Of a stretch of 64,000 nucleotides of DNA, positions 38,942 to 53,997 are shown one piece after another (positions within the stretch are counted from its first letter, which is position 1; every line of letters starts with the position of its first letter). Location of the stretch: positions 269,093 through 333,092 of the forward strand of contig CAVREM010000048.1 in the NCBI GenBank assembly GCA_963720005.1. Reading direction: 5' to 3'. The notes beneath the pieces were generated by a model. That model did not search any database, had not been told where the DNA came from, and worked only from the letters and a program-made list of their open reading frames with translations. This DNA comes from an uncultured Acidobacteriota bacterium. GTDB lineage: Bacteria > Acidobacteriota > Vicinamibacteria > Vicinamibacterales > CAVVIG01. A program made the position numbers and the translations under genes.

Positions 38942-39943
38942 ATGCGGGCGCGCCTGGTGACCGCCGTGATCCTTGCAGCCGCCTCAGCCTCGCTGACGGC
39001 CCAGACCGTCGGCTCCGCTCGGGCCGGGGCGCCCTCCCGCCAACCCGACCTCAAGACCGTCCTCGCCCGAGCCGCCGCCTACGTCGAGGAGTTCCGCGAG
39101 AGGTTGTCTGGAATCGTCGCCGAAGAGACCTACCGCCAGCAGGAGATCCCCGGCGAGCGCCGGGAACTGCGATCGGATCTCCTGCTGGTCCGATCGGAAA
39201 CGTTCCCGCGGTGGCTGCATTTTCGCGACACATTCGAGGTCGACGGGCAGCCAGTCCGGGACCGCGAGGAACGGCTGACGCACCTGTTTTTCGAGCCTGC
39301 GACGGCGCTGGAGCGGGCGAAGCGGATCGCCACCGAAAGCAGCCGATACAACATCGGCCCGGTCGAGCGGACGATCAACGTGCCGCTCATGCCGCTGGTG
39401 TTTCTCGAGCGAAACGTGCAGCCGCGATTCCGTTTCTCCCGCAGGGCCGACAACGAGCGACCTGCCGTCCCCGAGCACCACGCCGCACATTTCCGTGTAT
39501 CCACAGAAGTGTGGGTGGTCCACTTCGAGGAGCGCGAGCGTCCGACGATCGTTCGCGATTCGAAGAATCTCCGCGATGTGCCGAGCCGAGGGCCGATTCT
39601 GGATCGAACCTACCAGCGGACGCGTACTGATGAGCGAGACGCGGGCGAATCATCCGTCGCTCCGTGCCGACATTGCAGTCAACTATCAATCGGAGCCTCT
39701 CCTCGGCCTCCTCGTACCGGTCGCGATGTACGAGCGATACGAGAATACGCTGCCGGCGCAGCGTCTCCACCGAGCCAACGCTGGCGTCGCATCGAGGCCA
39801 TCGCAACATACGGTAAGTTCCGCCAGTTTCAGGTCCACGTCGAGCAGGATGTCGATCTTCCACGATCTCCAATCGACCAACCTTTGACGGGCCCACCCGC
39901 GGCCGTCGAACGTCCGAACGACGAACGCCCGAACGACAGATAG
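38942..39943 (+). CDS. secreted hypothetical protein; frame breaks between 39590 and 39790
   Basis: Has a signal peptide. ORF 38942.. is interrupted by a segment that reads better in ORF 39495.. (RGRFWIEPTSGRVLMSETRANHPSLRADIAVNYQSEPLLGLLVPVAMYERYEN), then the frame returns. Confidence 0.4.
   Translation: MRARLVTAVILAAASASLTAQTVGSARAGAPSRQPDLKTVLARAAAYVEEFRERLSGIVAEETYRQQEIPGERRELRSDLLLVRSETFPRWLHFRDTFEVDGQPVRDREERLTHLFFEPATALERAKRIATESSRYNIGPVERTINVPLMPLVFLERNVQPRFRFSRRADNERPAVPEHHAAHFRVSTEVWVVHFEERERPTIVRDSKNLRDVPSRGPILDRTYQRTRTDERDAGESSVAPCRHCSQLSIGASPRPPRTGRDVRAIREYAAGAASPPSQRWRRIEAIATYGKFRQFQVHVEQDVDLPRSPIDQPLTGPPAAVERPNDERPNDR
39905..39939. repeat. GAACGAC-word array (single orientation) at the 3' end of ORF 38942..39943
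   Basis: GTCGAACGTCCGAACGACGAACGCCCGAACGACAG. Translated it reads VERPNDERPNDR-stop. Confidence 0.75.
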
Positions 39944-39950
39944 GAGACCT

Positions 39951-40773
39951 ATGCCTGCCCGACCGACGTGGAGGGGATACCTGAAAATCAGCCTGGTCAA
40001 CATCCCGATCAAGGTGTTCCCGGCGACCGACGCCGCAGCCACCCTCAGCTTCAACCAGCTTCACGCCGAGTGCCAGACGCGCATTCAACAGAAACGCTGG
40101 TGCCCGCACTGCGAGCGCGAAGTCCCGAACACGGACCTGGTCAAGGGGTACGAGTTCGAGAAAGGCCGCTACGTCATCGTCGAGGAAGAGGACATCGAGA
40201 AGGTCCGTGTCGAGTCGACCCGGGTCATCAACCTCGAGAAGTTCACCGACGACACGGCGATCGACCCGATCTATCTCGAGCGGCCGTACTACCTGGCGCC
40301 GGACGGACCGGTCGCGAAGGAGGCGTTCGCCGTGATCCGCGAGGGGATGAAGGGCAAGGCCGGCATCGGCAAGGTGGCGCTGTACGGGCGGGAGTATCTG
40401 ATCAAGGTCCAGCCGCGCGAACAGGGGCTGATCATGTACACGCTGCGGCACGCCAACGAGATCCGCAGCATGGACGCGATCGACGAGCTTGCCGACATGC
40501 CGGCGGCGGTCAAGCCCGACGAAGTGCGGCTTGCCGAACAGGTGATCGGGACGTTTGACGGCGAGCTCGACTTCGAGTCGTACCGCGACGAGTACCAGGT
40601 CGGCCTGCGCGAGATCATCGACGCCAAGATCGAGGGGCGCGAGATCGTCGCGCCGGAAGTGGAGGCGCCGCCCAAGGTCGTCAATCTCATGGACGCGCTG
40701 CGCAAGAGCCTGACGACCATCGAAGCCGACGAAGAAGAAGACGCCGGCCGCGCGATCCAGAAAGGCTGGATAG
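39951..40773 (+). CDS. ku: non-homologous end joining protein Ku; +1 frame break near 40712
   Basis: RPTWRGYLKISLVNIPIKVFPAT, KGYEFEKGRYV and LERPYYLAPDG motifs are present. After one extra base the tail reads PSKPTKKKTPAARSRKAG-stop, the Lys-rich tail typical of Ku. Confidence 0.9.
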
Positions 40774-41499
40774 CTAGAATCCCATGTTCCGGATATCGTT
40801 CTTCAATCCGGGGTTGACGCGGAACCCGGCTTGTTCGGCCGCTCTCACGGCTGCCTCCGCCTCCGTCTTCCGGCCGGTCATCATGTACACGACCGCCAGG
40901 TTGTTGTACGCCTCACCGAGCTTGCGGTTCGCCTCGACGGCGGCCTTCCACTCAATCTCGGCGTCGGCCAGCTTCTCTTGACGGAAGTAGGCAGAGCCGA
41001 GCGCAAGCATGACCTCGCCAGGCACTACCGCCTGCTCGTGGCGATCGCGACCGTCCATGGCTTCGAGCGTACGGAGCCGATCCTCCAATTGGACGGCGTA
41101 TGGGCCGGTCGCCCCTCTCGCGAGGTGGAGCCGGGCGAGCGATGTCTTGATTTCGCCGATCTCGTCGCGTCTCGCGCGATCGCGCTGGTCGCGCTCCTTC
41201 TGGGAGCGGGTGGCGAGACTTTGAAAGGCTTCACGAGAGCCCTGGTAGGCAGCGACAGCCGCGACGAACCGCTTCTGCGCCATCCGGCACTGCCCGAGGT
41301 TGTAATGCGCCAGAGCCATCAGCGGATCGATCTCGATTGCGGCTCGGAACTGCGACGCGCCCTCTTCCCACCGTTCGGCCCGCATCAGCAGGACGCCCTC
41401 TTTGTAGTGGCGTTCCGCCAGCCTCACGTCGACCGCTGGCGGTTGAGCCGCCGTAGAGCTCATGATCACGAACGCAACGACCGAAGCTGCTCCCGTCAT
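40774..41499 (-). CDS. tetratricopeptide repeat protein, secreted
   Basis: Intact 241-aa ORF with a signal peptide and several TPR-like A/Y/N-rich helical repeats (ALAHYNLGQC, AYNNLAVVYM). Confidence 0.75.
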   Translation of the reverse strand: MTGAASVVAFVIMSSTAAQPPAVDVRLAERHYKEGVLLMRAERWEEGASQFRAAIEIDPLMALAHYNLGQCRMAQKRFVAAVAAYQGSREAFQSLATRSQKERDQRDRARRDEIGEIKTSLARLHLARGATGPYAVQLEDRLRTLEAMDGRDRHEQAVVPGEVMLALGSAYFRQEKLADAEIEWKAAVEANRKLGEAYNNLAVVYMMTGRKTEAEAAVRAAEQAGFRVNPGLKNDIRNMGF

Positions 41500-41525
41500 C
41501 TTGACCTCCCGGCCGCCTGGGGGCG

Positions 41526-43613
41526 CTACTGGCGGTCGATTGTCAAAAGTTCAACATCCTCCAGGGTGCGCTTCGTCACTTCGTCGCGCAGGACCATGCG
41601 CAGTTCGTGGGCGCCCACCGCGTCGGCAGGCACGGTGATCGCGATCGTCACGGTACCGGGCCGCAACTGGCCGGGGGGACCGGCTAGCACTTCGGCGCCG
41701 TCCGCCACTCGGCGCAGGCTGTAAGCCAGCGTCACTCGCGGCCCCCCTGCGGCACTGTCAATCCCCGCCCCGATGACGTCGAATGCGCAGAACAGCCGCG
41801 CGCCCGCCCTGAACGTCCGCCGCGCGATCGGCACCGGCCGACCGGGCTGACCCGGCGCCGCGGATTGTAGCGTATCGGTCACGACAGGCGTCGTGATCCG
41901 CAGCCCGTCGGGCCATGGCACGTCGAACTCATGGCGGACGCTTCCGACCATGCCATTGGCGCGATCCCGTAGCAGAATCGTCGCGAAATAGCGGCCCGGC
42001 GCCAATGAGAACTCCCGCCTGATCGGCAGGCCCGTCCTCCGTGCCTGTTCGAATGCTTCCGCGGGCATGTCGAGCTCGACGAGCCGTTCGTCGCGCTGCA
42101 GCTCGCCCGTCTCGCGATGGCCGACGAGTACATACGACTCCAGGACACCGGTGTAGCGGCCGTCACGTGGCCGCAACTGAAGCGGAGCAGGATCGGCCTC
42201 CGCAACGAGCAGCGTCTGCACCTTGCCGTCGGAACCGGCACCGAATGCGTAGCTCGCAAGTCGGAGCGGAATGCCTGACACACCGAGCGGTGAATCGAGA
42301 CCGGCTCGCACTGCCGGAGCCAGCTTGTCGCCGGACGCCCGGCGTTGCGTCTCGGAAGCGGCGTAGTAACCTCCGCGGGCGCGCACGTCCACGCCGGAAC
42401 GGTTCACGCCAACCTCGATTTTGCGAAACGCGCCGTCGCGGCGTGTATTCGTCGAGCTGTAGCCCAGGAGATAGTACGAACGGCCCTGGTCGGCAAGACG
42501 GGTCAGACCGGAGACGAGGTTCGTCCCGGTAATCGTGCTGCCGCCGGTGTCGGTGGCGATCGCCCGTGTTCCGTCCGCATCGCGGGATGCCAGCGCCAGT
42601 GACGTCGTCGCATCGCGGTCCTCGACCGCTCTTGCGGTGTCGGCGCCGCCGCCCGCCAGACCGGGCTGGCCGGGTAGTCCTTCCGGGCTTCGGACATCGA
42701 CGAAATGCACTGCCACGTTTGCGTTCCGTGCGGTTTGCACGAGCGTGCGGAAGCCGGGAAGGGTTGTGTCCGGAATGAAGCCTTCGGAGAAGAAGAACAG
42801 GCTTTTGCGGCCGCGCGCCGAGGCGAGCGCGGCGGAGATCCGGTCGAGCGCACCGAGCGAGGCCTGGATGCGCGTCTGTGCCTCTCGATAGGTCTGACGC
42901 GCCTTCGCCTGGATGAGGGCAATGCCGGGAGACACGTCGAGCTCACGGCGCAGCGTCGGATCGCCAGGGGCCGCGCCCGCCTCCGGAATGATGTCGTTCT
43001 CGAAGAACCGCCTCGCCACCTGAGCCAGCGCCTGGGGGTCGGTCTTGAGCGTAATCGCCATCGCCTCGTGGTCCCAGATGCGGTCGGGCGTGTTCTCCAT
43101 CCGTCGCGCGCCCTGCAGCTGCCGAACGCGCTCGAGCAATGCGTCGCGGTCCTGCGGCAGCTCCCCGGTCCAGCCGAACCCGCTCGACGACAGCGCGATC
43201 ATGACGCGGTCTCCTGGACGGAGCACGTGCTCGATGAACTGCGCAATCGTGTCACGCGCCCGCGGCGTCGCGAACTGCGTGACGTTCATGTCATCGAAGA
43301 CGATGAAGAACCACCGGCCGGCCGCATCAGGCCGTTGCTCGTTGGTCGATACGCGCATCCGCCCCTGCAGTGTCGGTGGCGACGGCGGCAGGGCGATCGC
43401 GTCGAATGCGGTCACCTGCTGACGCACGCCATCCTCCCGGACCGTGAAGTCTTCCGGCCTAAGGCCCTGGACAGGATTGCCGCTACGATCGAACACGACC
43501 GCGTCAACCGTGACGAGGTCGACGCGCGAAGGAAAGGTCGGCTGCTGCGCTCCTGATCCCGTTGCGGCCGCGAGGACGAGGATGATGGCGGTAAGCAGAG
43601 AGCGTATGCGCAT
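41526..43613 (-). CDS. VWA domain-containing protein (TIGR03436 acidobacterial VWFA-related type)
   Basis: Intact ORF. The start was chosen at MRIRSLLTAIILVLAAATGSGAQQPTF, just after a terminator. It has the N-terminal VDLVTVDAVV..G.PV.GL..EDF.V.EDG motif and a VWA core. Confidence 0.8.
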   Translation of the reverse strand: MRIRSLLTAIILVLAAATGSGAQQPTFPSRVDLVTVDAVVFDRSGNPVQGLRPEDFTVREDGVRQQVTAFDAIALPPSPPTLQGRMRVSTNEQRPDAAGRWFFIVFDDMNVTQFATPRARDTIAQFIEHVLRPGDRVMIALSSSGFGWTGELPQDRDALLERVRQLQGARRMENTPDRIWDHEAMAITLKTDPQALAQVARRFFENDIIPEAGAAPGDPTLRRELDVSPGIALIQAKARQTYREAQTRIQASLGALDRISAALASARGRKSLFFFSEGFIPDTTLPGFRTLVQTARNANVAVHFVDVRSPEGLPGQPGLAGGGADTARAVEDRDATTSLALASRDADGTRAIATDTGGSTITGTNLVSGLTRLADQGRSYYLLGYSSTNTRRDGAFRKIEVGVNRSGVDVRARGGYYAASETQRRASGDKLAPAVRAGLDSPLGVSGIPLRLASYAFGAGSDGKVQTLLVAEADPAPLQLRPRDGRYTGVLESYVLVGHRETGELQRDERLVELDMPAEAFEQARRTGLPIRREFSLAPGRYFATILLRDRANGMVGSVRHEFDVPWPDGLRITTPVVTDTLQSAAPGQPGRPVPIARRTFRAGARLFCAFDVIGAGIDSAAGGPRVTLAYSLRRVADGAEVLAGPPGQLRPGTVTIAITVPADAVGAHELRMVLRDEVTKRTLEDVELLTIDRQ

Positions 43614-43621
43614 AAAGGAAA

Positions 43622-43645
43622 AGGGGGCGGATTGCTCCGCCCCCT
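43622..43645 (-). terminator. rho-independent terminator between the receptor gene and the VWA gene
   Basis: On the minus strand: GGGGGCGG-AGCAAT-CCGCCCCC followed by TTTTCCTTT, then the VWA ATG. Confidence 0.6.
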
Positions 43646-43679
43646 TCACTATCCGCCTCCCTCTGGAGCCGGTCAAGAG

Positions 43680-46600
43680 CTACCAGTCGAACCGCGCACC
43701 GAACCGGATCGAAAGCGGGGCCTGAAACGAGCTCGTGGACGAGCCGCCGCCTAGCGTCGGCTGTCCGAAGTTCGGGTTCACCGCACCGAACGTGATTTCG
43801 GACCAATTGTCGTAGTTCAGCGCCGCCCGGCGGTTGAACAGGTTGAAGACATCCGCCAGCACGGTCACGCGCTGCGCGCGCCGAGCTCGAAGCGGTAATC
43901 GGCGTGCAGGTCGACGCCCAACTCTACAGGAGTCCGCTCCTTGAAGCCATCGACGGTCTCGATGCCCTCGCCGCGCACCGTCAAGGGAATTTCGCCCGGC
44001 GTTCGCGTACGCCGGATTTCCGGCCAGCGCGGTCAGAGAGGTGCCCGAGATGGCGTTGAAGCCGAAGCCGAGGTTGAAGTGTCCAAGATGTAGTTGCCGT
44101 ACAGCTTCAACTGGTGCGGCCGATCGTTCGGCAGCACGCCGGTGCCGAGCGAGTCGCCCTGGTAGCGGATATCGCCGCGAGCCGCCGTGAAGTCCCGATC
44201 TGAGTGTAGGTCGGGTCGTTGGTCGGGAAGTCGAAGAGCGAGGTGATCGCCGGATCGGACTGGCCGTTGTCCGACCGGAAGAATCCCTCGAAGTTGCCTT
44301 CGAGCTGGCTGAACCGGTACGACGCGATCGCCGCACCAGTTGCCCGCCAACCGCCTGTTCAACGTGAGCTCGAACGCGTTGTACATATGCGTGGGGTCCT
44401 CGAACGAGCTCGGCAGGACACCGCCGCACGACACGGTCGGAACATCCGCGTTGACGTTCAGAATCGCGTATTCGACCGATGCAGCGCCGCACGCACCGCT
44501 GGCGAACGGCTCGAAGTAGCCGACCAGCGGCAGATCGGAGATGTCCTCCAGGATCTGCGGCATGTTCCTCCGGATGAACCGGAAGGCGAGGTTCGTCGAA
44601 TTCAGCACGTCGAACTCCACGCCGGCGAGGATCTCGTTCTTGTAGGTGGAGCCGGAATCAGGATCGATTGGCGCCGCGTGGAGTCCGGCCTGTTGAAAAT
44701 GCGTAAGCCCGCCGGCGAACAACGTGCCGTTGGCCACCGGTTGCGTCAGCGCTGCGTCTCTGTAGTCCTGCCGCGTGATGCCCGCGTCGGCCGACATCGA
44801 GCGCGCCGCGAGATCGTTGGGAATCTTCGCGTAGAAGCGGCCATACGATGCAAACAGTTTCGCCCGGCCGTCGCCCCTCAGATCGAAGGCCACGCCGAGC
44901 CGTGGGGCCAGGTTGTTCCACGCGAACGAACACCGGATCGCCGGTCCGGTGCCGTCACCCTGGCCGGGCCGCGTGTCGCCCTCGAAGCAGAGATCCGGAT
45001 TGTCGCCGACGGGATCGACACCGCTCAAGTTCTGACGCTCATACCGAATACCAGGCCGTATCGTCAGCCTGCCCGCCTGCCAGGTGTCTTGCAGGAAGAA
45101 GCTGAAGGCCTCCTGGTTGGTCACGTCGGTTGGAACGAGCTTGCCGCGAGTCGAACGGTGGAACGGTTCTCGCTGCATCGGTGCCGAGGCGAATCTGAAT
45201 CGGCCCGCCGGTCACCGTCGACCCACCGGTCGAGAGGAGAAGGTTCGGACCGCTATAGTCGAAGTCACGCGTGAACTCGATGTTTTCCAGCCCGACACCA
45301 TACCTGACTTGGTGATCGCCGGCGCCGCTCAGAATGTGCGTGGACTTGACGCCGTACTGGAAGTTGCTCCCTTTGTCACGCTCGTAGCTGCCGAGCCCGC
45401 CGCTGCGCCCGTTCGGCGTGAACCGCAGGTCCTGGTAGAACCAATCGTCGACGGTCGCAATCTCGTTGAACTTGTTGGACGAGCTCGCCAGGTTCGCTTC
45501 GACGAGCCAGCTCGCTCCGACAATGCCGTCGTATCGAAGCGTCTGATTGTGTCCACCGTACTCCAGCTCGCTGGAGCCACCGTCGATTGACGTCGTTCCC
45601 GGGGCGTCGGCGTACGCGATGCGGCGAAGCTCCGAATAGCGCTGCAGGCCGCTCTCACCCTTTGATGGATCGCCAAACAGCGAGACATCGAAGCGGTGAT
45701 TTCCGCTCACATTTGCGCTCAGCTTGCCGGCATACGACTGGATCGTCCGTTTGCGGTCGACAACCCCGAGACTGGCGTACCGGGAAGCCAGGCGGCGCGG
45801 TGAAGCCGCGCTGCTGCCACTGCGGGTTGTAGGTGCCGAAGAAGAAGAGTCGATTCTCCACAATCGGACCGCCGACGGAGATGCCGATGTCGGAATCATC
45901 GACGCTGGCGGTGTTGACAGTTGCCATTCGGAGTGGTCAGCTCCTTCCACGACGCTTCGAGCGCCGACGGTCTTGTATAGCCGAACAGGCCGCCGGAGAA
46001 CTGGTTGCCGCCGCTCTTCGTGATGACGTTGACGACGCCGCCGGTGGTCTGGCCGAATTCCGCCTCGAAGCCGCCGGTCTTGATTTCGGTTTCCTTGATG
46101 AAGTCGCTCGTCACTCCAGCGCCCAGCGAGCCGAAGATCGAGTTATACGCACCAAAGCCGCCGAAGCCTGTGTCGGTGATGTTGACGCCATCGATCACAT
46201 AAATGTTCTCGAGGCCGCTGGCGCCATTGATGGACGGATTCGCGTTGCCGCCGGCCAGGTTGATGCCGGCGCTCATCGTGACGCCCGGGACCCGTCCAGT
46301 GTGGACGCGAGCGAGCGACCGACTGGAAGGTGCTGGAGCGTCTCGCTGTCGAGGACGTTCCCCGCGGTGGTATTGGTGATGTCGATCGCGGTGGCCCCGG
46401 CCGTCACCTGAACCGTCTCCGCAATCCCACCGGTCTCCAGCGCGAGGTTCAACTCACGACGTGTGCCGAGCTGGACGCTTAGGTCCCTTTGCTCGGCGGC
46501 TTTGAAGCCTGAGAGCTCCGCGCGGACTGAATACGATCCGGGCACCAGCAGCGGCGCATAGAAGCGACCGTCGTTGTCAGTCACCATTGTGCGGGCACCT

Positions 46601-46755
46601 TGAGCGCCGGTGATCGTGATCGTCGCGCCCGGCACTGGCAGGCCCTGCGGATCGACGACGCGGCCGCTGATCGACCCGGTCGTCTCCTGCGCAGCGGCAG
46701 CGCCCGTCAGCGCCAGCGCGAATACGAGAAGAAGAGTCCCCATGCGTGCGAACAT
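43680..46755 (-). CDS. TonB-dependent receptor-like outer-membrane protein with carboxypeptidase regulatory-like N-terminus; many frame breaks
   Basis: Signal peptide MFARMGTLLLVFALALTGAAAAQ, then ISGRVVDPQGLPVPGATITI. Plug motifs are VIDGVNITD and GVVNVITKSGGNQF. The C-terminus is SIRFGARFDW. The pieces are spread over at least six ORFs. Confidence 0.8.
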
Positions 46756-46964
46756 CAGTTCTCTCTCCTTTGAAGAGTGGCCCGTTGCACGGACATAGCG
46801 CCCGGCCCAATGTTGACCGGTTGTTCTATAACGAATCCCACCGCTTTCGCAATCTTTTAATGATCGCGCAATACTAAAGTTCCGCGGCAAGCACCTCACG
46901 TGCCCTTTTGCACAATTTCAGTCAAATCTGAGTCTGAATTCAAACATTTGGATGACTTGCCGAC

Positions 46965-47265
46965 TTCCGCGCAGGCGATCGACGAGCATGCCGGCATGCC
47001 GGCGGCGGTGAAGCCCGATGAAGGCCGGCTTGCCGAACAGGTGATCGGAACGTTTGCCGGGGAGCTCGACTTCGAGTCGGTCCGCAACGACTACCAGGTC
47101 GGCCTGGGGGAGATCATCGACGCCAAGTTCGAGGGGCGCGAAATCACTGCGCCGGAGGTTGAGGCACCACCCAAGGTCGTTAATCTCATGGACGCGCTGC
47201 GGCAAAGCCTGGACAGAGCATCAGCACCACGGCGTTGCGATCCAACAGGTTGGATCAAAGACTCT
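46965..47265 (+). pseudogene. diverged partial copy of the 3' end of ku (C-terminal roughly 85 codons plus downstream nt)
   Basis: ORF 46900..47337 contains MPAAVKPDEGRLAEQVIGTFAGELDFESVRNDYQVGLGEIIDAKFEGREITAPEVEAPPKVVNLMDALRQSL, collinear with Ku residues encoded at 40475..40775. A hand count over the core gives about 87% nt identity. Confidence 0.7.
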
Positions 47266-47562
47266 AATCTTTTGGATAATCAGGGCTTCTGGATTTCAGG
47301 TATTTTCGAACAAACGGTCAAAAACCTTGAAAAGTGAGGATACATTCCCCAACAAATTGCCTATGATTCGCTGGCATTACGCGTGCTCTAGCGATGCTGA
47401 ACAACTGTTCAACAAGAAGAAAGGAAACCGCAAACAATGAGACGAAAAAGCCTTGCTCGTCGCGCTGCTGGCCGTCATCCTCGGCAGCCGTCCGCGCCAT
47501 TCCAGAGGATGAGATTGATCTTCGGGAAGCATCCACCAGGTCGTGCGTTTGAGGAGAAACCT

Positions 47563-50367
47563 ATGATGAAGGCTTTCGGCGGCATCGGTCTCGTGCTCAC
47601 TCTCATGTTCGTCCCGGCATTGACCGCGGCCCAGACGGCCCAGGTCGGTGGGGTTTCCGGCGAAGTCACCGACGCGACCGGCGCGCGCCTGCCAGGCGCG
47701 ACGGTGACGCTGGTAAGCGTCGAACGGGGCGTGGCACGATCAACAGTCACCGACGGCGAAGGCGCATACCGCTTCTCGCTCGTCGCTCTCGGCACTTACA
47801 ACGTGAGCGTGGAGCTCTCCGGCTTCACAACGGTCCAGATTACAAACAATCTCGTCGAAGCGGAAAAAACCACCCACGTGATGGTGTCGCTGCAGGTGGC
47901 AAGTCTCACTGAAGCGACCACGGTCGTCGGCAGACTCCGATCGTCGATGCGGGCAATCAGACGCAGCAGGCCCGGCTCCGTGTCGAAGAGTTCGAAAAGA
48001 TGCCCTGGGCACGCAGCTACCTGAATCTGATCGCGGCGGCTCCCGGTGTTGTCGGCACGGCCAACGTCAACTCCCACGGCGCGCTCACCAACAGCAACCG
48101 TTCATGTTCGACGGCGTGAACACGACCGACCCGACAACCGGCACGTTCGGCAGCAACCTGAACTTCGAATCAGTCAGCCGAGGTGGTTGTTCGCACGCCG
48201 CCGTGTCGGCGGGAATCGGGCGATCGTCAGGGAGCGTCATCGACGTCATCACGAAGTCGGGCACGAACCGGTTTGCGGGATCGTTCAAGTACCTGGCAGA
48301 AAACGACAACTGGAACGCGCAGAACAACGATGTGAAAAGCGAAGTCGCGCCGTTCCCGTCGCTCGCCCGCACCAAATACGACAAGGTGAACTCGATTTAC
48401 TCGGGAACGTTGGGTGGTCCAATCATAACAGAGACCGCGCCTGGTTCTTCGTGAGCGTATGAAGACTCGGCGGAGGACGACTCCCGGAAGTCCAGCTGAA
48501 CGCGCGGCCGGGCATCACGCCCGAAACCTTCCAACAGGTGCCGAAGATCCCTCGTTCAATGCCCGTGGAACGGTCCAGCTGGGCCCCGCGCAGAACCTTG
48601 TGGGTGAAAGTCGTGCGAACGCCAACGAGCGGGATTCGTTCGAAACGACTACTGGGGGGGCGTCAATTTTTCCGGCAGAGCGCGAATCACTCACTGCCCA
48701 GGAACAGGGGGGGACGAGCGTCGCGGGACGGTCCATCGGCTGTGCTCAACCCCCGCTGGACGGCCGAGGCGATGGATGGCTTATGCGACGGGAGTTCATC
48801 GACGGTGCGTCCCCTACGAGCGAACCAACGTGGACAACGGGGCACCGTATCTCGACTTGAACGACAACCGTGTCTACAACGGCGCGACGTTCGACGGTTA
48901 TGTCAAGCGGCCACGCCTGCAGGCAACCGGCGCGCTCAACAACTACACCACGATCGGCGGCCGCACGCACAACTTCAAGCTCGGGCTGGACTGGCAGAGT
49001 GTGACGTCTGAGAACTCGTTCAAGTATCCCAACAGCCAGCTGTTCTACGGCCTCGGATTCGACCCGGTCGCCAGAAGTTTTGCGACTAACCAGTTCTCGA
49101 GAGGACTACGATGATGCGCCGTCGCAGTCGAACGGCGATCTGATCGCCATCTACGCGCGCGACAAGTTCGAGATCGGCACGCGTGTGAGCGCCGAGGCGG
49201 GCCTCCGTTACGAGCGGCAGGGCGGCACGAGCGATGTCGGCGTCGACACGGTGGCCACGAATACGATCGCCCCAAGACTTTCGGCGAGTTACGCGCTCAG
49301 CGACGACGGCAAAAGTCTGCTGGTCGCTTCCTACGGCCGTTATTATGATGCCGTGTTGCAGACGTTTTCAGATTCATTCGCGAGCGTCCCGCAGCAGGAG
49401 AACTACAGCACCTACATCTGGAACGGTTCGGCATACGTGTTCGACAGCACCACCGTATCGGCCGACAATCCGTTCAGGCCGAATACCGACGTCCGGCCCC
49501 GCAGCCTCGACGAGTTCACCGTCGGCTTCGACCAACAGGTCGGCCGTACAATCGGTGCCGGTGTTCGGTATATTCACCGGACCTGGGGCAACTTCATCGA
49601 CGACATCATCACGTTCAACCCCGACGGCACGCGCAATCGCCGCGCTGAGAACATCGATTCGGCCGAGCGCACCTACCGGGGGATCGAGTTCTCGGTGGAC
49701 AAGCGCTTCTCGAGTGCCTGGTCGGCGATGGGCAATTACACCTACTCGAGAACCCGCGGCAACCACTTCGACACCGGCGACAACTTCACGACGCTCGAGG
49801 ACTACTCGAAGTCGACCTGCCGTCAGACCGTGGATCCTGGCCTGTTTGGCGGCGGCACGTTCCCATGCAGCGAGATCTTTCCGAACCTGTACGGCAAGCC
49901 GATTTTCGATCGTCCGCACCTGATCAAGCTCAATGCGGCGTACAGTCCGCCCGGTGGGTCCGGTTAATCTCACAGCCGGCTTCGTCGGCACGGCGACGTC
50001 GAAGACGACGTATCAGAAGCAGCGCACGGTCAGCGTGGTCAGTCCGGTGACGGGCGGCAATTTCGCGAACTACACGTACTTCTACGAGCCGCGGGGGAGC
50101 CAGCGCGTGCCGGGACTGCTGGACGTCTACGACTTGTCGCTGGAAGGGACCTGGCGCGCGGGACCGAGGAGGGACCTCGGAATGAAGTTCGAGATCTTCA
50201 ACATTTTCAACAACGAAGAGAAGCTCAACGTGAGCAACCTGAATTGGTGCAACTCGACGTCAACGGCCGCCTGCGCGACGGCGGTCGCCAACTTCGGCAC
50301 GGCGACCGCTCGCGGGGCGTTCCAGGGACATCGGACGTTCCGACTGACGGCGCTGTTTCGGTTCTAA
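47563..50367 (+). CDS. TonB-dependent receptor-like outer-membrane protein with carboxypeptidase regulatory-like N-terminus; many frame breaks
   Basis: GAGGAG RBS, then MMKAFGGIGLVLTLMFVPALTAAQ and VSGEVTDATGARLPGATVTLV. Plug motifs are FMFDGVNTTDPTTG and VIDVITKSGTNRFAG. The C-terminus is FRLTALFRF. Confidence 0.8.
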
Positions 50368-50389
50368 AACAGGGCTGGTGGGGCGGGTG

Positions 50390-50415
50390 GGGCAGACAGG
50401 CAAGTAGGTCTGCCC
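50390..50415 (+). terminator. terminator-like hairpin after the receptor gene
   Basis: GGGCAGAC-N10-GTCTGCCC lies 23 nt after the stop at 50367. Confidence 0.4.
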
Positions 50416-50459
50416 AATCTGCCCGTTCCATGTCCGATCCGCGCGCCCTCAGATCGCCG

Positions 50460-50863
50460 CTAACGACCTTGGACGCTGTCGAGGATGGCGGCCAGATCGA
50501 TGCGCTTCAGGATCGGCTCGCTGCCGGCCTCTTTGTAAATCTCGTTCGCGATCTGCTGGGAGAGAAGCTGCGGCAGGTCCGTCACGTGCGGATGCCGGAA
50601 CCGATCGACCTGGATCGTCGGGGCCGTTACCCCGAGATAGATTGAGAGCCGCAGCGGCACAGGGAGGTCGAACGCGAGCAGTTGAAGCCGACGAGGTGCC
50701 CCTGCTCCACGTGATGCCAGACGGTCGAGAGCAGCGTCGCCCCGTCCATGGTGGCGAGCGTCGCCGTGGTCGACTTAGGTTCCCGCTCTCGCCACCAGCC
50801 CACCGCCACGACACGGCACAGATCCGGATCCAGTGAACACCGCTCGAGTGGGCGGGAGGGCAT
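50460..50863 (-). pseudogene. truncated, frame-shifted ORF weakly resembling PolB-exo-like 3'-5' exonuclease (PF10108 type)
   Basis: ORFs 50627..50863 and 50460..50660 join as ..RVVAVGWW..GATLLSTVWHHVEQGHLVGFNCSR-FDLPVPLRLSIYLGV... This resembles the LV.FNG..FDlPvL core. The first acidic motif and the distal half are absent. Confidence 0.3.
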
Positions 50864-51042
50864 CAGGCCCTCCCGTTAGAGGCGCTCATCCCTCGATCAC
50901 GCTTTCACACTGAATGCGCCGCCTCGTGCGACTTCACCTGACACGTTGGCGCACGATGCGTCGATCCCCGCCTCGTTGCCAAGGATCCGTGCATGTCGAC
51001 TCATCACCGGGTCTATTTATCACCGGTGACAAGGAGGCATGC

Positions 51043-53997
51043 ATGTTCACATCCTCACGTGTCGCCAGCACCTCTCCTGATTAACCTCACGCTGTTGATG
51101 ACGCTACCGCGGCCTGGGCTTGCGCAGGATGGTGACAGTGGTGGCATCTTCGGCAGGATTACGGACACCCACGGTCTCGGTATTGCGAACGTCGGCGTGA
51201 CGATCGAATCAACCAGCTCGCCAGAGTCTCATCGGACACGGACTGCTATCGAGGGTTCGTATGCCATACCGCGTGTGTCTTCAGGATCGTACGAGATCAT
51301 TCCTCACGGCGCCGCAATTCAACGAGGTCCGTCGAACCATAACATTGCCACCGCACTTGGCGGTCCGATTCGACGTCACGCTCAGCATTGCCAGTTACGT
51401 GCAGACCGTTCAGGTGACAGCGGAACCGTCGCTGCCTGCCAAAGTGCCCGGGCAATCTACCTATCATTCTGGAGAAATCGAACTCCTCGCTGTACCACGA
51501 ACACCGCAAGGTATTGCGCAGCTGGCGCCAGGAGTAACCGATACCGCACCAACCGCTGGCCAGATCGCAATTAGCGGTGGCTTCGCCTTCGACAACTCTT
51601 TCCGGATGAATGGTGTTGATGTCGCCGACAACCTCTTTGCGGTGCCATTCAACCTATTCATCGAGGACGCTATCGAGCGAACCGACATATTGACGGCCGG
51701 TATACCAGTCGAATTTGGTCGCTTTACCGGCGGCGTCGTCAACGCCGTCACGAAGAGCGGCACGAACGTGTTTCGCGGAAGTTGGCGCGGAAATCTCGCG
51801 AGCCCATCCTGGTCGGCGATGACGCCGTTAGAACGCTGCGTGGCGCCGGGTCGGGTTACGCCTGCGGGTTGTGTTCCGGCAGCGCCACGGCCGAATGATC
51901 TACACATGACCCACGAGGCTACCGTCGGCGGTCCGATCGTTCGGAATCACCTTTGGTTCTTCGGCGCAGCACGTTCGGCCCGTGTGACCCACTCCGCTAG
52001 CCTGCCGCGAACGAACCTGCAGAATACTCAGACAGACGTAAACCGGAGGATAGAGCTCAAAGCATCCGGGGCCTTGACGAACGCTCATCATGTTGAGTTC
52101 GGTTACTTCAACAACTCTACGCGACAAACGCGACGACCCACACTACCGTCGACGATCGATCCGTTCGCACTCGGTGACCGACGCCTTCCGAACTGGTATG
52201 CGTCGACTGAGTACCATGGCATCGTTCGCGATTGGCTCGTTCAGGCACACTTCGCCGAACGGACGTTCCGCTTTGAAGACGCACACCGATTAGCAGGGTC
52301 CATCGCCGACTCGCCGTTTCTGACGCTCACTCGCGAGCGCGATCACTACAACGCGCCATTCTTTGACGGGAACGACCCAGAGTCCAGGCGTAGTCGACAG
52401 TTCACTGCAACAGCAGCTCGTCATGTACTGGCGCAGGCGAATCTACGTCATGACTTTAAGATCGGCTACGACTTCGCGCGCCACAGCCGGATCGGCGGCA
52501 ATTCCCAGTCTGTCACGGGCTATGTATTCAACGCGGATTACGCGACCGATTCGACTGGCGTGGCCCTCTACGACCCGCAGGGACATTTGCTACCAGTTTT
52601 CGCTCCTGGCGTGAGCTTGCTAGAGCACTGGTTGCCGGTGAAGGGAGCAGCACTGCATGCAATTACTCATACGCTTCTTGCACGCGATCGGTTGACCCTT
52701 GGTGACCGCTGGTCGGCCGACGTTGGTTTCCGGTACGAGTGGGTGACCAGCGAAACGAGCGTCGGCATTGATCGTCTGGCGACCAACACGTTGGTACCGC
52801 GCCTTGCCATCGCGCGCGATCTGAACGCAGATGGTCGACACATCGCGCAACTCTCGTATAGTTGGTACTCAGGCCGTTACAACGAGTTCCAGTTCGGTGC
52901 GAACAACAACGTCGGCAATCCCAATCTGCTCTTCGGCGTGTACACCGGACCTGCCGGCGCTGGTCGAGACTTCTTGCCGGGATTTGATCCGAACAACTAT
53001 CTGACCCTTTACGGCCAGTTTCCCGCAGAGAACGTGCACTACGCACCTCGCCTCAGGGCAGCGATCGCCAAGGAGTTCGCGGTGTCGCTCAGGAATGGTC
53101 TCTTCGGCAATCGTGCGTATATTGAGGCCGCGTTCATCCACCGCAACTTCGGCAGCGTTATCGAAGACTATATTCAGGTAGACAACGGATTCACGAACGT
53201 GGTTGTGGACGGCTTCAACGTGGGCACGTTTACGAACATCGTGTTCCAGAACACGAATGCGGCATGGCGGCGATATGACGCCCTTGTGTTCGATGGCCGC
53301 TACAGCGTCACCGATCGGTGGTTGGTGAACGGCAACTACACCTTGCAACTGAGGAACGACGGCAACTATGAAGGCGAAGGTACGAACCAGCCGGCTGTGA
53401 CAAGCCGCCTTGGCGATTATCCGGAGATTTTTACCGCCATTCGCCATTACCCCGAAGGGCGGCTCGATGATTTCCAGCGGCACAAGGTCCGCCTCTGGAC
53501 GATCTACCGTCTCGGCTTGTCTCGTTTTGGGGATGCCTCGTTGTCGGCACTGTCGCGTATCGATTCCGGCACGACCTATAGCGATGCAGCGGCCGGGCAG
53601 CCGATCACCCCGACGCAACGGGCAAAACTCGGCACGGCCGGGTACCCTGATGCGCCGGCCAACCAGACGGTTTTCTTTGGGGAACGTGGCGCCAATTTCT
53701 TCAAGGGTTTCCAGGTTTGGGACCTCGCCGCCACCTACAACGTGCCGGTGCTCCAGAATCTGCGGCCATATGTCAACCTTTCGCTGTTCAACGCCTTCAA
53801 CAACCAGAAGCTGATCCGCTGGAACACGACCGTCTCGCCCGATCCGACCTCGCCAGTCGACGAGAACGGCCTGCGCACGGACTTCCGTACGCGGGCCGAT
53901 CCATGGCCTTGCGACCAGCAACAACCAGTTCCCGGCGCCGTCGATTGGCGGGACGGGCGGCCGGACGTGGCGCATCGCGGCCGGCTTCCGGTTCTAG
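51043..53997 (+). CDS. TonB-dependent receptor-like outer-membrane protein with carboxypeptidase regulatory-like N-terminus; lower GC; three +1 frame breaks (about 51075, 51290, 53895)
   Basis: AAGGAGG RBS (alternative GTG start at 51056). Motifs are GIFGRITDTHGLGIANVGVTI, FRMNGVDVADN and GVVNAVTKSGTN. After the last correction the C-terminus reads SNNQFPAPSIGGTGGRTWRIAAGFRF-stop. Confidence 0.75.

Follow-up and report, generated by a model that had tools for sequence, protein, structure and literature searches.

How has the 3′ end of a DNA-repair gene come to lie twice on one contig, with an outer-membrane receptor operon between the two copies? We addressed this question at the ku locus of an uncultured soil acidobacterium of the Vicinamibacterales (G000), using a stretch of 64,000 nt, called the window here, to which all positions refer. 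The locus was compared with that of three congeners (G001, G002 and G003) and of further lineages, given below by their L numbers.

The 3′ end of ku recurs as a headless relic

A preliminary description had claimed that the 3′ end of ku recurs at about 87% identity. Pairwise alignment gave an ungapped direct repeat of 237 nt between 40476-40712 and 46975-47211, with 88% identity (blastn 88.2%, E 3.5e-82), and a weak similarity of the two copies extended upstream to about 40455/46955. The first copy (40476-40712, + strand) is the 3′ part of intact ku, codons 176-254. The second (46955-47237, + strand, core 46975-47211) has the same orientation and is in frame, as had been stated, and an open frame of 145 aa (46900-47337) spans it with no internal stop, matches being found in the Ku-like middle only. 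Beyond 47211 the copy continues as ku tail with gaps: compared with the tails of the congeners, 2 nt are inserted and about 66 nt are deleted, which agrees with the internal deletion described for its Lys-rich tail. It covered only positions 180-259 of the 259 in the bacterial Ku model TIGR02772, scored 37 bits against a curated cut-off of 150, and had no Pfam match. The second ku copy is a headless relic and no gene, a 5′-truncated and decaying ku 3′ end. A few more nucleotides had been included in the repeat, but this downstream similarity (40751-40772 and 47238-47262) is probably due to chance because L046 and L049 are without it.

The relic lies where it had been placed, between two CarboxypepD_reg/OMP_b-brl_4 receptor genes that start divergently at 46755 (− strand) and 47563 (+ strand), and its flanks are indeed AT-richer, with a GC content of 0.47-0.55 versus 0.62-0.70 nearby. 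The AT-richer spacer upstream of the first of these genes (46756-46954) contains the junction with the relic; its part 46756-46876 is common to L045, and about 46877-46954 can be aligned to L045 only in part. No match was obtained in an Rfam scan of 46600-47700 (E≤1) or in a promoter and terminator scan of 46700-47620. A small hairpin after the relic (47238-47258, z = -1.8) and one at the ku stop (z = 0.3) were not convincingly better folded than shuffled sequences.

The intact ku and its tail

The functional ku gene (39951-40773, + strand) carries the Ku70/80 beta-barrel domain (PF02735, E 7.5e-42) and, with 143.8 bits against a cut-off of 25, was recognized as a full-length Ku. As assembled, its frame reads to a TGA at 40815-40817, and the stop at 40771-40773 is in the +1 frame. 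The ku tails of L045, L053, L046 and L049 were compared with it, together with a one-base correction; when one C of the CC at 40726-40727 was deleted, ku ended in ...IEATKKKTPAARSRKAG*, as in the relatives. Those ending ku exactly at the corrected stop include one contig from a separate JGI-hosted metagenome set. The biological stop is most likely the TAG at 40771-40773, the assembled frame extending to 40817 because of the one extra C, and this frameshift is probably a long-read or assembly indel error. The claim that the ku stop directly abuts the stop of the next gene (40773/40774) therefore stands after the one-base correction and fails for the frame as assembled.

Two kinds of ku tail were observed. 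The tail ...RKAG* is present in all four lineages in which ku is linked to the block described below (this genome, L045/L053, L046 and L049), and every ku without the block, other genera included, ends in ...KRARA* or ...KKRA*. That ...RKAG* is exclusive to block-linked ku fits incoming DNA that brought its own ku. Site by site, ku was found to be a mosaic throughout (92-98% identity per 100 nt), including a patch at 40118-40148 where G002 equals G003 and G000 differs, so that a single clean left crossover cannot be placed. A crossover at the repeat boundary (homology end at 40712, lower G000-G002 identity) was considered and was dropped on account of this mosaic. The other ku genes of this genome are on other contigs.

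The block between the repeats

Three genes lie between the repeats, all on the − strand. The first (40774-41499) encodes a TPR-repeat protein of 241 aa (Pfam TPR_2, TPR_16 and others); its stop (40774-40776) abuts the ku stop, and it likewise adjoins ku in L045, L046, L049 and L053. The second (41526-43676) encodes a 716-aa protein matching TIGR03436 acidobact_VWFA (194 bits against a cut-off of 81), the homologues of which are named 'VWFA-related protein'. In a search of 118 family genomes its best match reached only 36%, and its close relatives were found in metagenome contigs only. The third gene, receptor 2 (43680-46755), encodes a CarboxypepD_reg domain with an outer-membrane beta-barrel and is colinear with intact homologues of 1017 and 1021 aa, although its assembled sequence changes frame five times. 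Both large receptor genes are broken across several frames here, which probably reflects long-read indel errors, at least in large part.

Domain annotation of 40774-46955 showed these genes only and no integrase or transposase, bearing out the preliminary description, and no integrase, transposase, excisionase or transfer gene was found in the matching block of L045, L046 or L049. Among the inverted repeats listed there was no terminal pair at 40774/46955. Related receptor-VWFA-TPR operons were found in other genomic contexts in L047 and L048.

Congeners without the block

The three congeners are colinear with the window over 1-64000 but are without 40713-46974 and 47489-51505; the 6.3-kb TPR-VWFA-receptor block is thus missing in all three. 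Immediately after the ku stop they have the counterpart of 47238-47488, the sequence that stands after the relic here. It had been proposed that ku in relatives might be followed directly by the receptor gene starting at 47563. The congener ku does run straight into the post-relic sequence, but the gene that comes next codes for another receptor, and this genome has kept no more than 17 codons from its start. The intergenic sequence directly after their ku stop corresponds to 47238-47437 (+ strand) with 89% identity in G002, 84% in G003 and 77% in G001, and it is present in L049 and L050 too. Here it is followed by a remnant of the resident receptor gene (47438-47488, + strand) that comprises the start codon and the codons up to the 17th (signal peptide) and has a 2-nt deletion; homology to the congeners ends at 47488. 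A second block absent from the congeners follows (47489-51505, + strand), holding receptor 3, which starts at 47563 and shifts frame many times, together with the 5′ portion of receptor R; it stands in place of 405 nt of the congeners' receptor.

The order ku, receptor, polA without the block was also found in the more distant lineages L050 and L124, which supports the block-free state as old. In other genera (L013-L022) no TPR or receptor gene follows ku, and in G021 (L022) polA is downstream of it. A decayed tandem ku paralogue was also considered as the source of the repeat and was rejected, as two full-length ku genes were found at the locus in none of G001-G003, L045, L046, L049, L050 and L124.

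Origin and decay of the relic

A phylogeny of both ku segments, as the preliminary description had suggested, was built from the 237-nt core. In this maximum-likelihood tree, based on 237 sites only, the relic grouped with the ku ends of G002 and G003 with 99% bootstrap support, and the 3′ part of the intact ku was sister to them (97%). It is the fragment, not the intact copy, that clusters with these two congeners, and the grouping rests on shared derived sites at 40558, 40610, 40643, 40647-8 and 40670. The relic is orthologous to these ku ends, which argues that it is the displaced end of the resident ku.

The relic has 15 private substitutions, nine non-synonymous and six synonymous, and the non-synonymous changes hit eight codons that are invariant in all other sequences. 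From the tally of private changes, omega on the relic branch was about 0.5; pairwise dN/dS was 0.23-0.26 when one of the two sequences was the relic, as against 0.09-0.16 when both were intact. The relic is under relaxed constraint. Without its private changes it would be about 95% identical to G002; it is young in this genome and is now drifting. Sites 40489 and 40495, once taken as private changes common to the relics of G000 and L045, were an artefact of a shifted multiple alignment.

The same arrangement in other lineages

The metagenome contig L045, which comes from a different sample and is about 88% identical, shows the same gene order, including a ku fragment in the corresponding position. 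A chimeric assembly, named earlier as what would overturn the displacement reading, is countered by this independent contig, and a one-off misassembly is ruled out. The divergence of the block matches that of its flanks (about 88% identity to L045, about 80% to L046 and L049), and the block is therefore an old resident of the locus in some lineages. In the flank-based species order, lineages with and without the block are interleaved, so that several gains, losses or allele transfers are required under any model. Furthermore, the relic of L045 is closer to its own ku (90.7%) than to the relic of G000, which requires gene conversion or repeated 'refreshing' by crossovers inside the relic. The arrangement predates this genome and was probably spread by homologous recombination.

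A probable history of the locus

We consider it probable, with some reserve, that the repeat arose by recombination anchored in ku homology and that the relic is the resident ku end displaced by an incoming operon with its own ku. The preliminary description had offered incoming DNA that truncated a resident ku as one explanation, and the synteny of the congeners, the tree and the ...RKAG* tail all support it. We infer the direction of the event, its recombination mechanism and its later spread from comparison, and the polarity is not proven. The donor may have been a related Vicinamibacterales lineage, its DNA consisting of a ku with a different tail and the convergent TPR-VWFA-receptor operon. 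The first crossover would have been homologous, within or upstream of ku, and the other joint may have been illegitimate at its origin, so that the operon, by its promoter side, became fused to the resident ku at codon ~170. Such a product is what homology-facilitated illegitimate recombination yields; the alternative would be a later homologous transfer of the whole allele. The original ku 3′ end would thereby have been moved 6.5 kb and cut from the rest of ku, while its downstream spacer and 17 codons from the start of the receptor gene that originally adjoined it stayed attached. Presumably it still functioned as a gene end during part of the branch after the split from G002/G003-type sequence. 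Once in place, the relic could serve as a right-hand homology arm, with which the whole insert could enter block-free relatives by an ordinary double crossover, and the insert could also be lost through recombination between the two 300-nt direct repeats.

A more far-reaching proposal, which we offer only tentatively, is that the ku 3′ repeats act as a shuttle free of any recombinase, with ku as left arm and the relic as right arm, and that the operon has been gained and lost repeatedly across species. Gain by double crossover and loss by repeat recombination would then take place in soil Vicinamibacterales, and the relic would be 'refreshed' from the recipient's own ku at every transfer. If true, this would explain both the host-like relics in two lineages and the interleaved presence and absence of the block on the species tree.

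Under the displacement reading, the locus would be a dated, base-level example of an uncultured soil acidobacterium gaining an outer-membrane uptake operon without mobile-element machinery, with nothing more required than a housekeeping gene that offers homology and a single illegitimate joint. The ku-polA stretch is a hot spot of receptor-gene turnover in this genus. All this is ordinary genome history and reveals neither a new system nor a new mechanism.

Comparison with known systems

Integration that is homologous on one side and illegitimate on the other is well established (PMC3240628) and has been put forward to explain displaced gene ends of a similar kind (PMC5361080). This homology-facilitated illegitimate recombination is described for Acinetobacter, Streptococcus pneumoniae, Pseudomonas stutzeri and E. 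coli in PMC3240628 and in references cited by PMC5361080. As in such events, foreign DNA here lies beside a conserved gene that gives homology, no recombinase gene is needed, and the other end would be joined non-homologously, in the resident ku at codon ~170. In the laboratory, such events mostly remove DNA of the recipient and add no more than 1 kb, whereas here the gain is 6.3 kb, and a 300-nt stretch would now exist in duplicate, one copy having come with the donor DNA; unlike those events, this one is deduced from comparison. The locus also resembles the orphan ends of T6SS effector-immunity, Rhs and CDI loci (Kirchberger et al., 2017, PMC5361080), where an incoming module that is homologous in its upstream part replaces the working copy and the old 3′ end is left downstream as a relic. 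Those loci involve toxin and immunity functions, diversifying selection and serial relics (PMC5361080), whereas this one has a DNA-repair gene, a single relic and an outer-membrane receptor operon as cargo. Islands at the 3′ ends of tRNA and protein genes likewise have an intact end on one side, a partial duplicate on the other and cargo between direct repeats; unlike them, the present block has no integrase, and its repeats are 240-300 nt long at 88% identity rather than a short exact attachment core. It also differs from a transposon or insertion sequence in having no transposase and a duplication of about 300 nt rather than of a few bases.

Alternative explanations

A doubtful alternative is that block and relic are ancestral to G000, G002, G003 and L045, the relic being an old duplicate kept similar by gene conversion, and that the congeners lost the block through recombination between the repeats, which restored ku. 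L045 stands outside G000, G002 and G003 by flank identity (89-92% versus 93-98%) and nonetheless shares the relic and its position with G000, so that under simple vertical descent the ancestor of G002 and G003 would already have had the relic. The 300-nt direct repeats would ease such deletions, the clustering of the G002 and G003 ku ends with the relic is as if they had descended from it, and the two copies of L045 cluster together, as gene conversion would yield. However, the congener tail ...RKRARA* is intact and conserved in G001, L050, L124 and other genera, whereas the tails of both relics, that of G000 and that of L045, are broken, and a relic older than L045 is an unlikely source of a working gene end for G002 so recently. 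Crossovers would have had to fall within the initial ~50 nt of the repeat in G002 as well as in G003, and the decay of the relic in G000 amounts to only about one branch length at the omega given above.

It is very unlikely that the block is a site-specific mobile element, or the remnant of one, that targeted the ku 3′ end with a replacement gene end and then lost its recombinase. The layout would suit such an element, with the gene end intact next to the island, a partial copy displaced to the opposite side and direct repeats, as would the related operons in L047 and L048, but none of the mobility genes searched for was present in 40774-46955 or in the block of L045, L046 and L049, the repeat has no short exact core, and the operons elsewhere, 61% identical, resemble paralogous loci rather than recent insertions.

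An assembly artefact, in which strains with and without the block were stitched together through shared ku 3′ sequence, seems hardly credible. In its favour, the genome is in draft form (117 contigs, marker completeness 66%), isolated 1-nt indels are numerous in it, and the relic and its spacer look G002-like while the block looks like another lineage. Against this, the relic, with its eight private replacements and disrupted tail coding, copies no working ku end, and the spacer attached to it is not ku sequence; the independent assembly of L045 repeats the order and the relic, and L053, from a JGI-hosted metagenome, confirms the ku-TPR junction.

That the 145-aa frame is instead a working small gene for a free-standing Ku C-terminal peptide is extremely improbable: it is open over the Ku-like part, but it carries eight replacements at otherwise invariant residues, its tail coding is destroyed, its N- and C-terminal parts are without any match, the L045 counterpart is shorter and out of register, and the frame is absent or broken in L045 and L049. 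The frame at 46900-47337 should be annotated as a ku pseudogene fragment.

A second, severed copy of the ku 3′ end

The sequence studied belongs to a 7.4-Mb draft genome of 117 contigs (G000:C48:269093-333092). A repeat finder returned a single outstanding direct repeat within 38-50 kb, which paired 40476-40712 with 46975-47211 over 237 nt, ungapped and 88% identical (blastn, 88.2%, E 3.5e-82). When gaps were allowed, faint similarity extended back to ~40455/46955, and the right copy ran on into a damaged ku tail with ~66 nt missing and a 2-nt insertion. The left copy (B1) formed the 3′ portion of a gene for Ku (PF02735, E 7.5e-42). On either side of the right copy (the relic) was a CarboxypepD_reg/beta-barrel receptor gene, the two running away from it in opposite directions, and the DNA flanking the relic had 47-55% GC compared with 62-70% nearby. 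The preliminary description had proposed just such a diverged copy, in the same orientation, deleted in its tail and set in AT-richer DNA between divergent receptor genes, and this description held. Three minus-strand genes made up the module between the copies: a TPR gene (40774-41499), a gene for a 716-aa VWFA-related protein (41526-43676; TIGR03436, 194 bits) and receptor 2 (43680-46755).

The module-free arrangement in congeners

Three congeners (G001-G003) were colinear with the whole window, the identity of conserved genes to the source genome G000 being 97-98% for G002, 93-96% for G003 and 81-85% for G001, and 40713-46974 and 47489-51505 were missing in all three. Fine alignment gave the congener order as ku with the tail ...RKRARA*, a spacer (=47238-47437), and a receptor ATG with signal peptide (=47438-47488). 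By this order, the 530 nt at ~46955-47488 are a piece of the module-free arrangement, running from the ku end through the spacer to the receptor start, and in G000 they lie between two extra blocks. The preliminary description had asked whether ku in relatives directly precedes the receptor starting at 47563 (receptor 3); in the congeners the module was absent and ku ran into the spacer, but the next gene was a different receptor, whose start corresponds to 47438-47488.

A palindrome, TGAACA-AC-TGTTCA (GAAC-N4-GTTC), was present in the spacer at 47398-47411, 27 nt upstream of the resident receptor ATG, and was conserved in G001-G003 and in the metagenome contigs L045 and L049; other conserved spacer blocks included TCTAATCTTTTGGATAATCAGGG (47262-47284). 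The palindrome and blocks are possibly operator sites.

Ku tails and split reading frames

The ku frame as assembled extended to 40817, and the Lys-rich end with its TAG (40771-40773) lay in the +1 frame; dropping one C from the CC at 40726-40727 yielded a ku end of ...IEATKKKTPAARSRKAG*. In relatives, ku had this same ending, and its stop fell on the corresponding base, directly against that of the TPR gene. As the extra C was absent from relatives, including the JGI-hosted metagenome contig L053, the frameshift is probably a long-read or assembly indel error. The earlier claim that the ku and TPR stops abut was thus upheld after a one-base correction, but not in the assembled frame.

Many isolated 1-nt indels within coding DNA separated G000 from G002 and G003, several of which set G000 apart from both congeners at one and the same position (e.g. 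33631, 33904, 34752 and 36584). Receptor 2 was colinear with intact homologues of 1017 and 1021 aa from other assemblies, yet it contained five frame changes; intact receptor homologues in other assemblies measured 971-1021 aa. Because of these private indels and intact homologues, the ku frameshift and the split receptors were treated as probable sequencing indels. More frame changes than in receptor 2, above the background rate, were found in receptor 3 (47563-~50840), and the next receptor (R) had one near its 5′ end (51070-51330). The splits are likely indel errors at least in large part, and not evidence of gene death; real decay is possible, above all in receptor 3.

Every module-linked ku (window 40713-40773; L045, L046, L049 and L053) ended in a shorter ...RKAG* tail, whereas all other ku, across genera, had a basic end, ...KRARA* or ...KKRA* (G001-G003 and the compared loci L050, L124 and L013-L022). 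The Ku tail is dimorphic, and the confinement of RKAG* to module-linked ku indicates that the module travels with its own ku end.

Origin of the relic

An alignment of the 237-nt core covered the two copies in G000 together with the sequences of the congeners, the metagenome contigs and ten further genera. The ML tree, which supplied the phylogeny of the two segments proposed earlier, joined the relic to G002 and G003 (99% bootstrap) with B1 as their sister (97%). Among the 28 differences between the copies, ~15 were private to the relic, and at ~9-13 the relic carried the derived state of G002 and G003 and B1 the outgroup state. The private changes included nine non-synonymous ones, in eight codons invariant in all other sequences, even those of other genera; with six synonymous changes on the same branch, omega was ~0.5 by manual count, and pairwise ratios between intact copies were 0.09-0.16. 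Such an omega exceeds that of a functional gene, but falls a little short of that for a fragment inactive along its entire branch. With its private changes set aside, the relic was ~95% identical to G002, which is the backbone level. On this grouping, omega value and identity, the relic is what was once the ku end of this same lineage; it was severed fairly recently and is drifting.

Two further ku genes were present in G000 (C42:185771-186583 and C43:5203-5994; 69% and 31% amino acid identity to that of the window), and no further ku fragments were found in this genome.

The module in metagenome contigs

Among 118 family genomes, nothing close to the VWFA protein turned up (best, 36% identity); its close relatives, of 93%, 79-80% and 61-65% identity, came from metagenome contigs. 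L045, from another sample and ~88% identical to G000 throughout, carried ku, TPR, VWFA, receptor 2, a shorter ku fragment at the same position, the spacer and a receptor. The farmland scaffold L049 (~80% to G000) contained ku, the module, the spacer and a receptor, with both receptors intact; a recognisable ku fragment was not found between its module and spacer. In L046 (~80% to G000), ku and the module were followed directly by the genes preceding polA, with neither spacer nor ku fragment after the module. Related receptor-VWFA-TPR operons at 61% (L047 and L048) were not located next to ku, and in more distant lineages (L050 and L124) the order was ku, receptor, polA, with the module absent.

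Proposed history of the locus

The simplest account is the one already put forward in the preliminary description, that incoming DNA with its own ku truncated the resident gene; the RKAG* tail is module-linked, and the relic is the resident end. DNA carrying this ku′ and the module would have recombined with a module-free chromosome through one homologous crossover, in ku or upstream of it, and one illegitimate joint at the other end, which fused to the resident ku at codon ~170. Such a product is the expected outcome of homology-facilitated illegitimate recombination (PMC3240628), and like reasoning has been put forward to explain how effector ends were displaced at T6SS and Rhs loci (PMC5361080). 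That the arrangement is a real recombination scar of a known kind, and not a new system, is well supported; it makes a useful case history, and annotation at the locus needs correcting.

Since L045 shares the relic position, the founding event is older than G000. The G000 relic looked young and G002/G003-like, and that of L045 resembled L045's own ku (90.7%). With the position shared yet each relic host-like, we infer that ordinary double crossovers later carried the composite allele from one lineage to another, ku serving as left arm and the relic as right arm; at each such transfer, recipient sequence would take the place of most of the relic. The ku gene was mosaic along its length, which fits frequent recombination at the locus. 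A small recombination patch inside ku (40118-40148) comprised seven third-position sites in 30 nt at which G002 and G003 agreed and differed from G000.

Under the main rival, the composite is ancestral, and recombination between the repeats removed the module from G002 and G003. This view agrees with the species order, in which L045 falls outside G000/G002/G003; however, module-free genomes keep an intact, widely conserved ...KRARA* tail and the G000 relic shows little decay, and we regard this reading as doubtful. Gene conversion is an alternative to allele transfer for the likeness of the L045 relic to its own ku. Three other readings are unlikely: misassembly, the ku-TPR junction being confirmed in L053 (96.7% identical to L045); site-specific integration of the module, no recombinase gene having been found between the copies, as the preliminary description had stated for integrases and transposases; and a functional mini-ORF in the relic, in which eight otherwise invariant codons have changed and the coding of the tail is broken.

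Receptor turnover between ku and polA

Homology to the congeners broke a second time at 47488, within the signal-peptide codons of the resident receptor, and picked up again at 51506. The block in between (47489-51505) takes the place of 405 nt of the congeners' receptor and leaves only codons 1-17 of the resident receptor (47438-47488). It carries another receptor gene, which has an upstream region of its own, starts at 47563 and is split over many frames, and it also takes in the 5′ portion of the receptor that follows. The remnant of the receptor start is a counterpart to the ku relic. In L045, the slot held a different receptor, 75% identical to that of G002. The presence of different receptors in the same slot in G000 and L045 marks the ku-polA interval as a site of receptor cassette turnover.

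Upstream of ku, a 333-aa secreted protein (38942-39943) had no match among Pfam and NCBIfam families; some contigs from soil metagenomes contained as many as five paralogous copies of it in tandem, between DUF3500 and ku (L099, 1552-6005; L103, 2376-6850).
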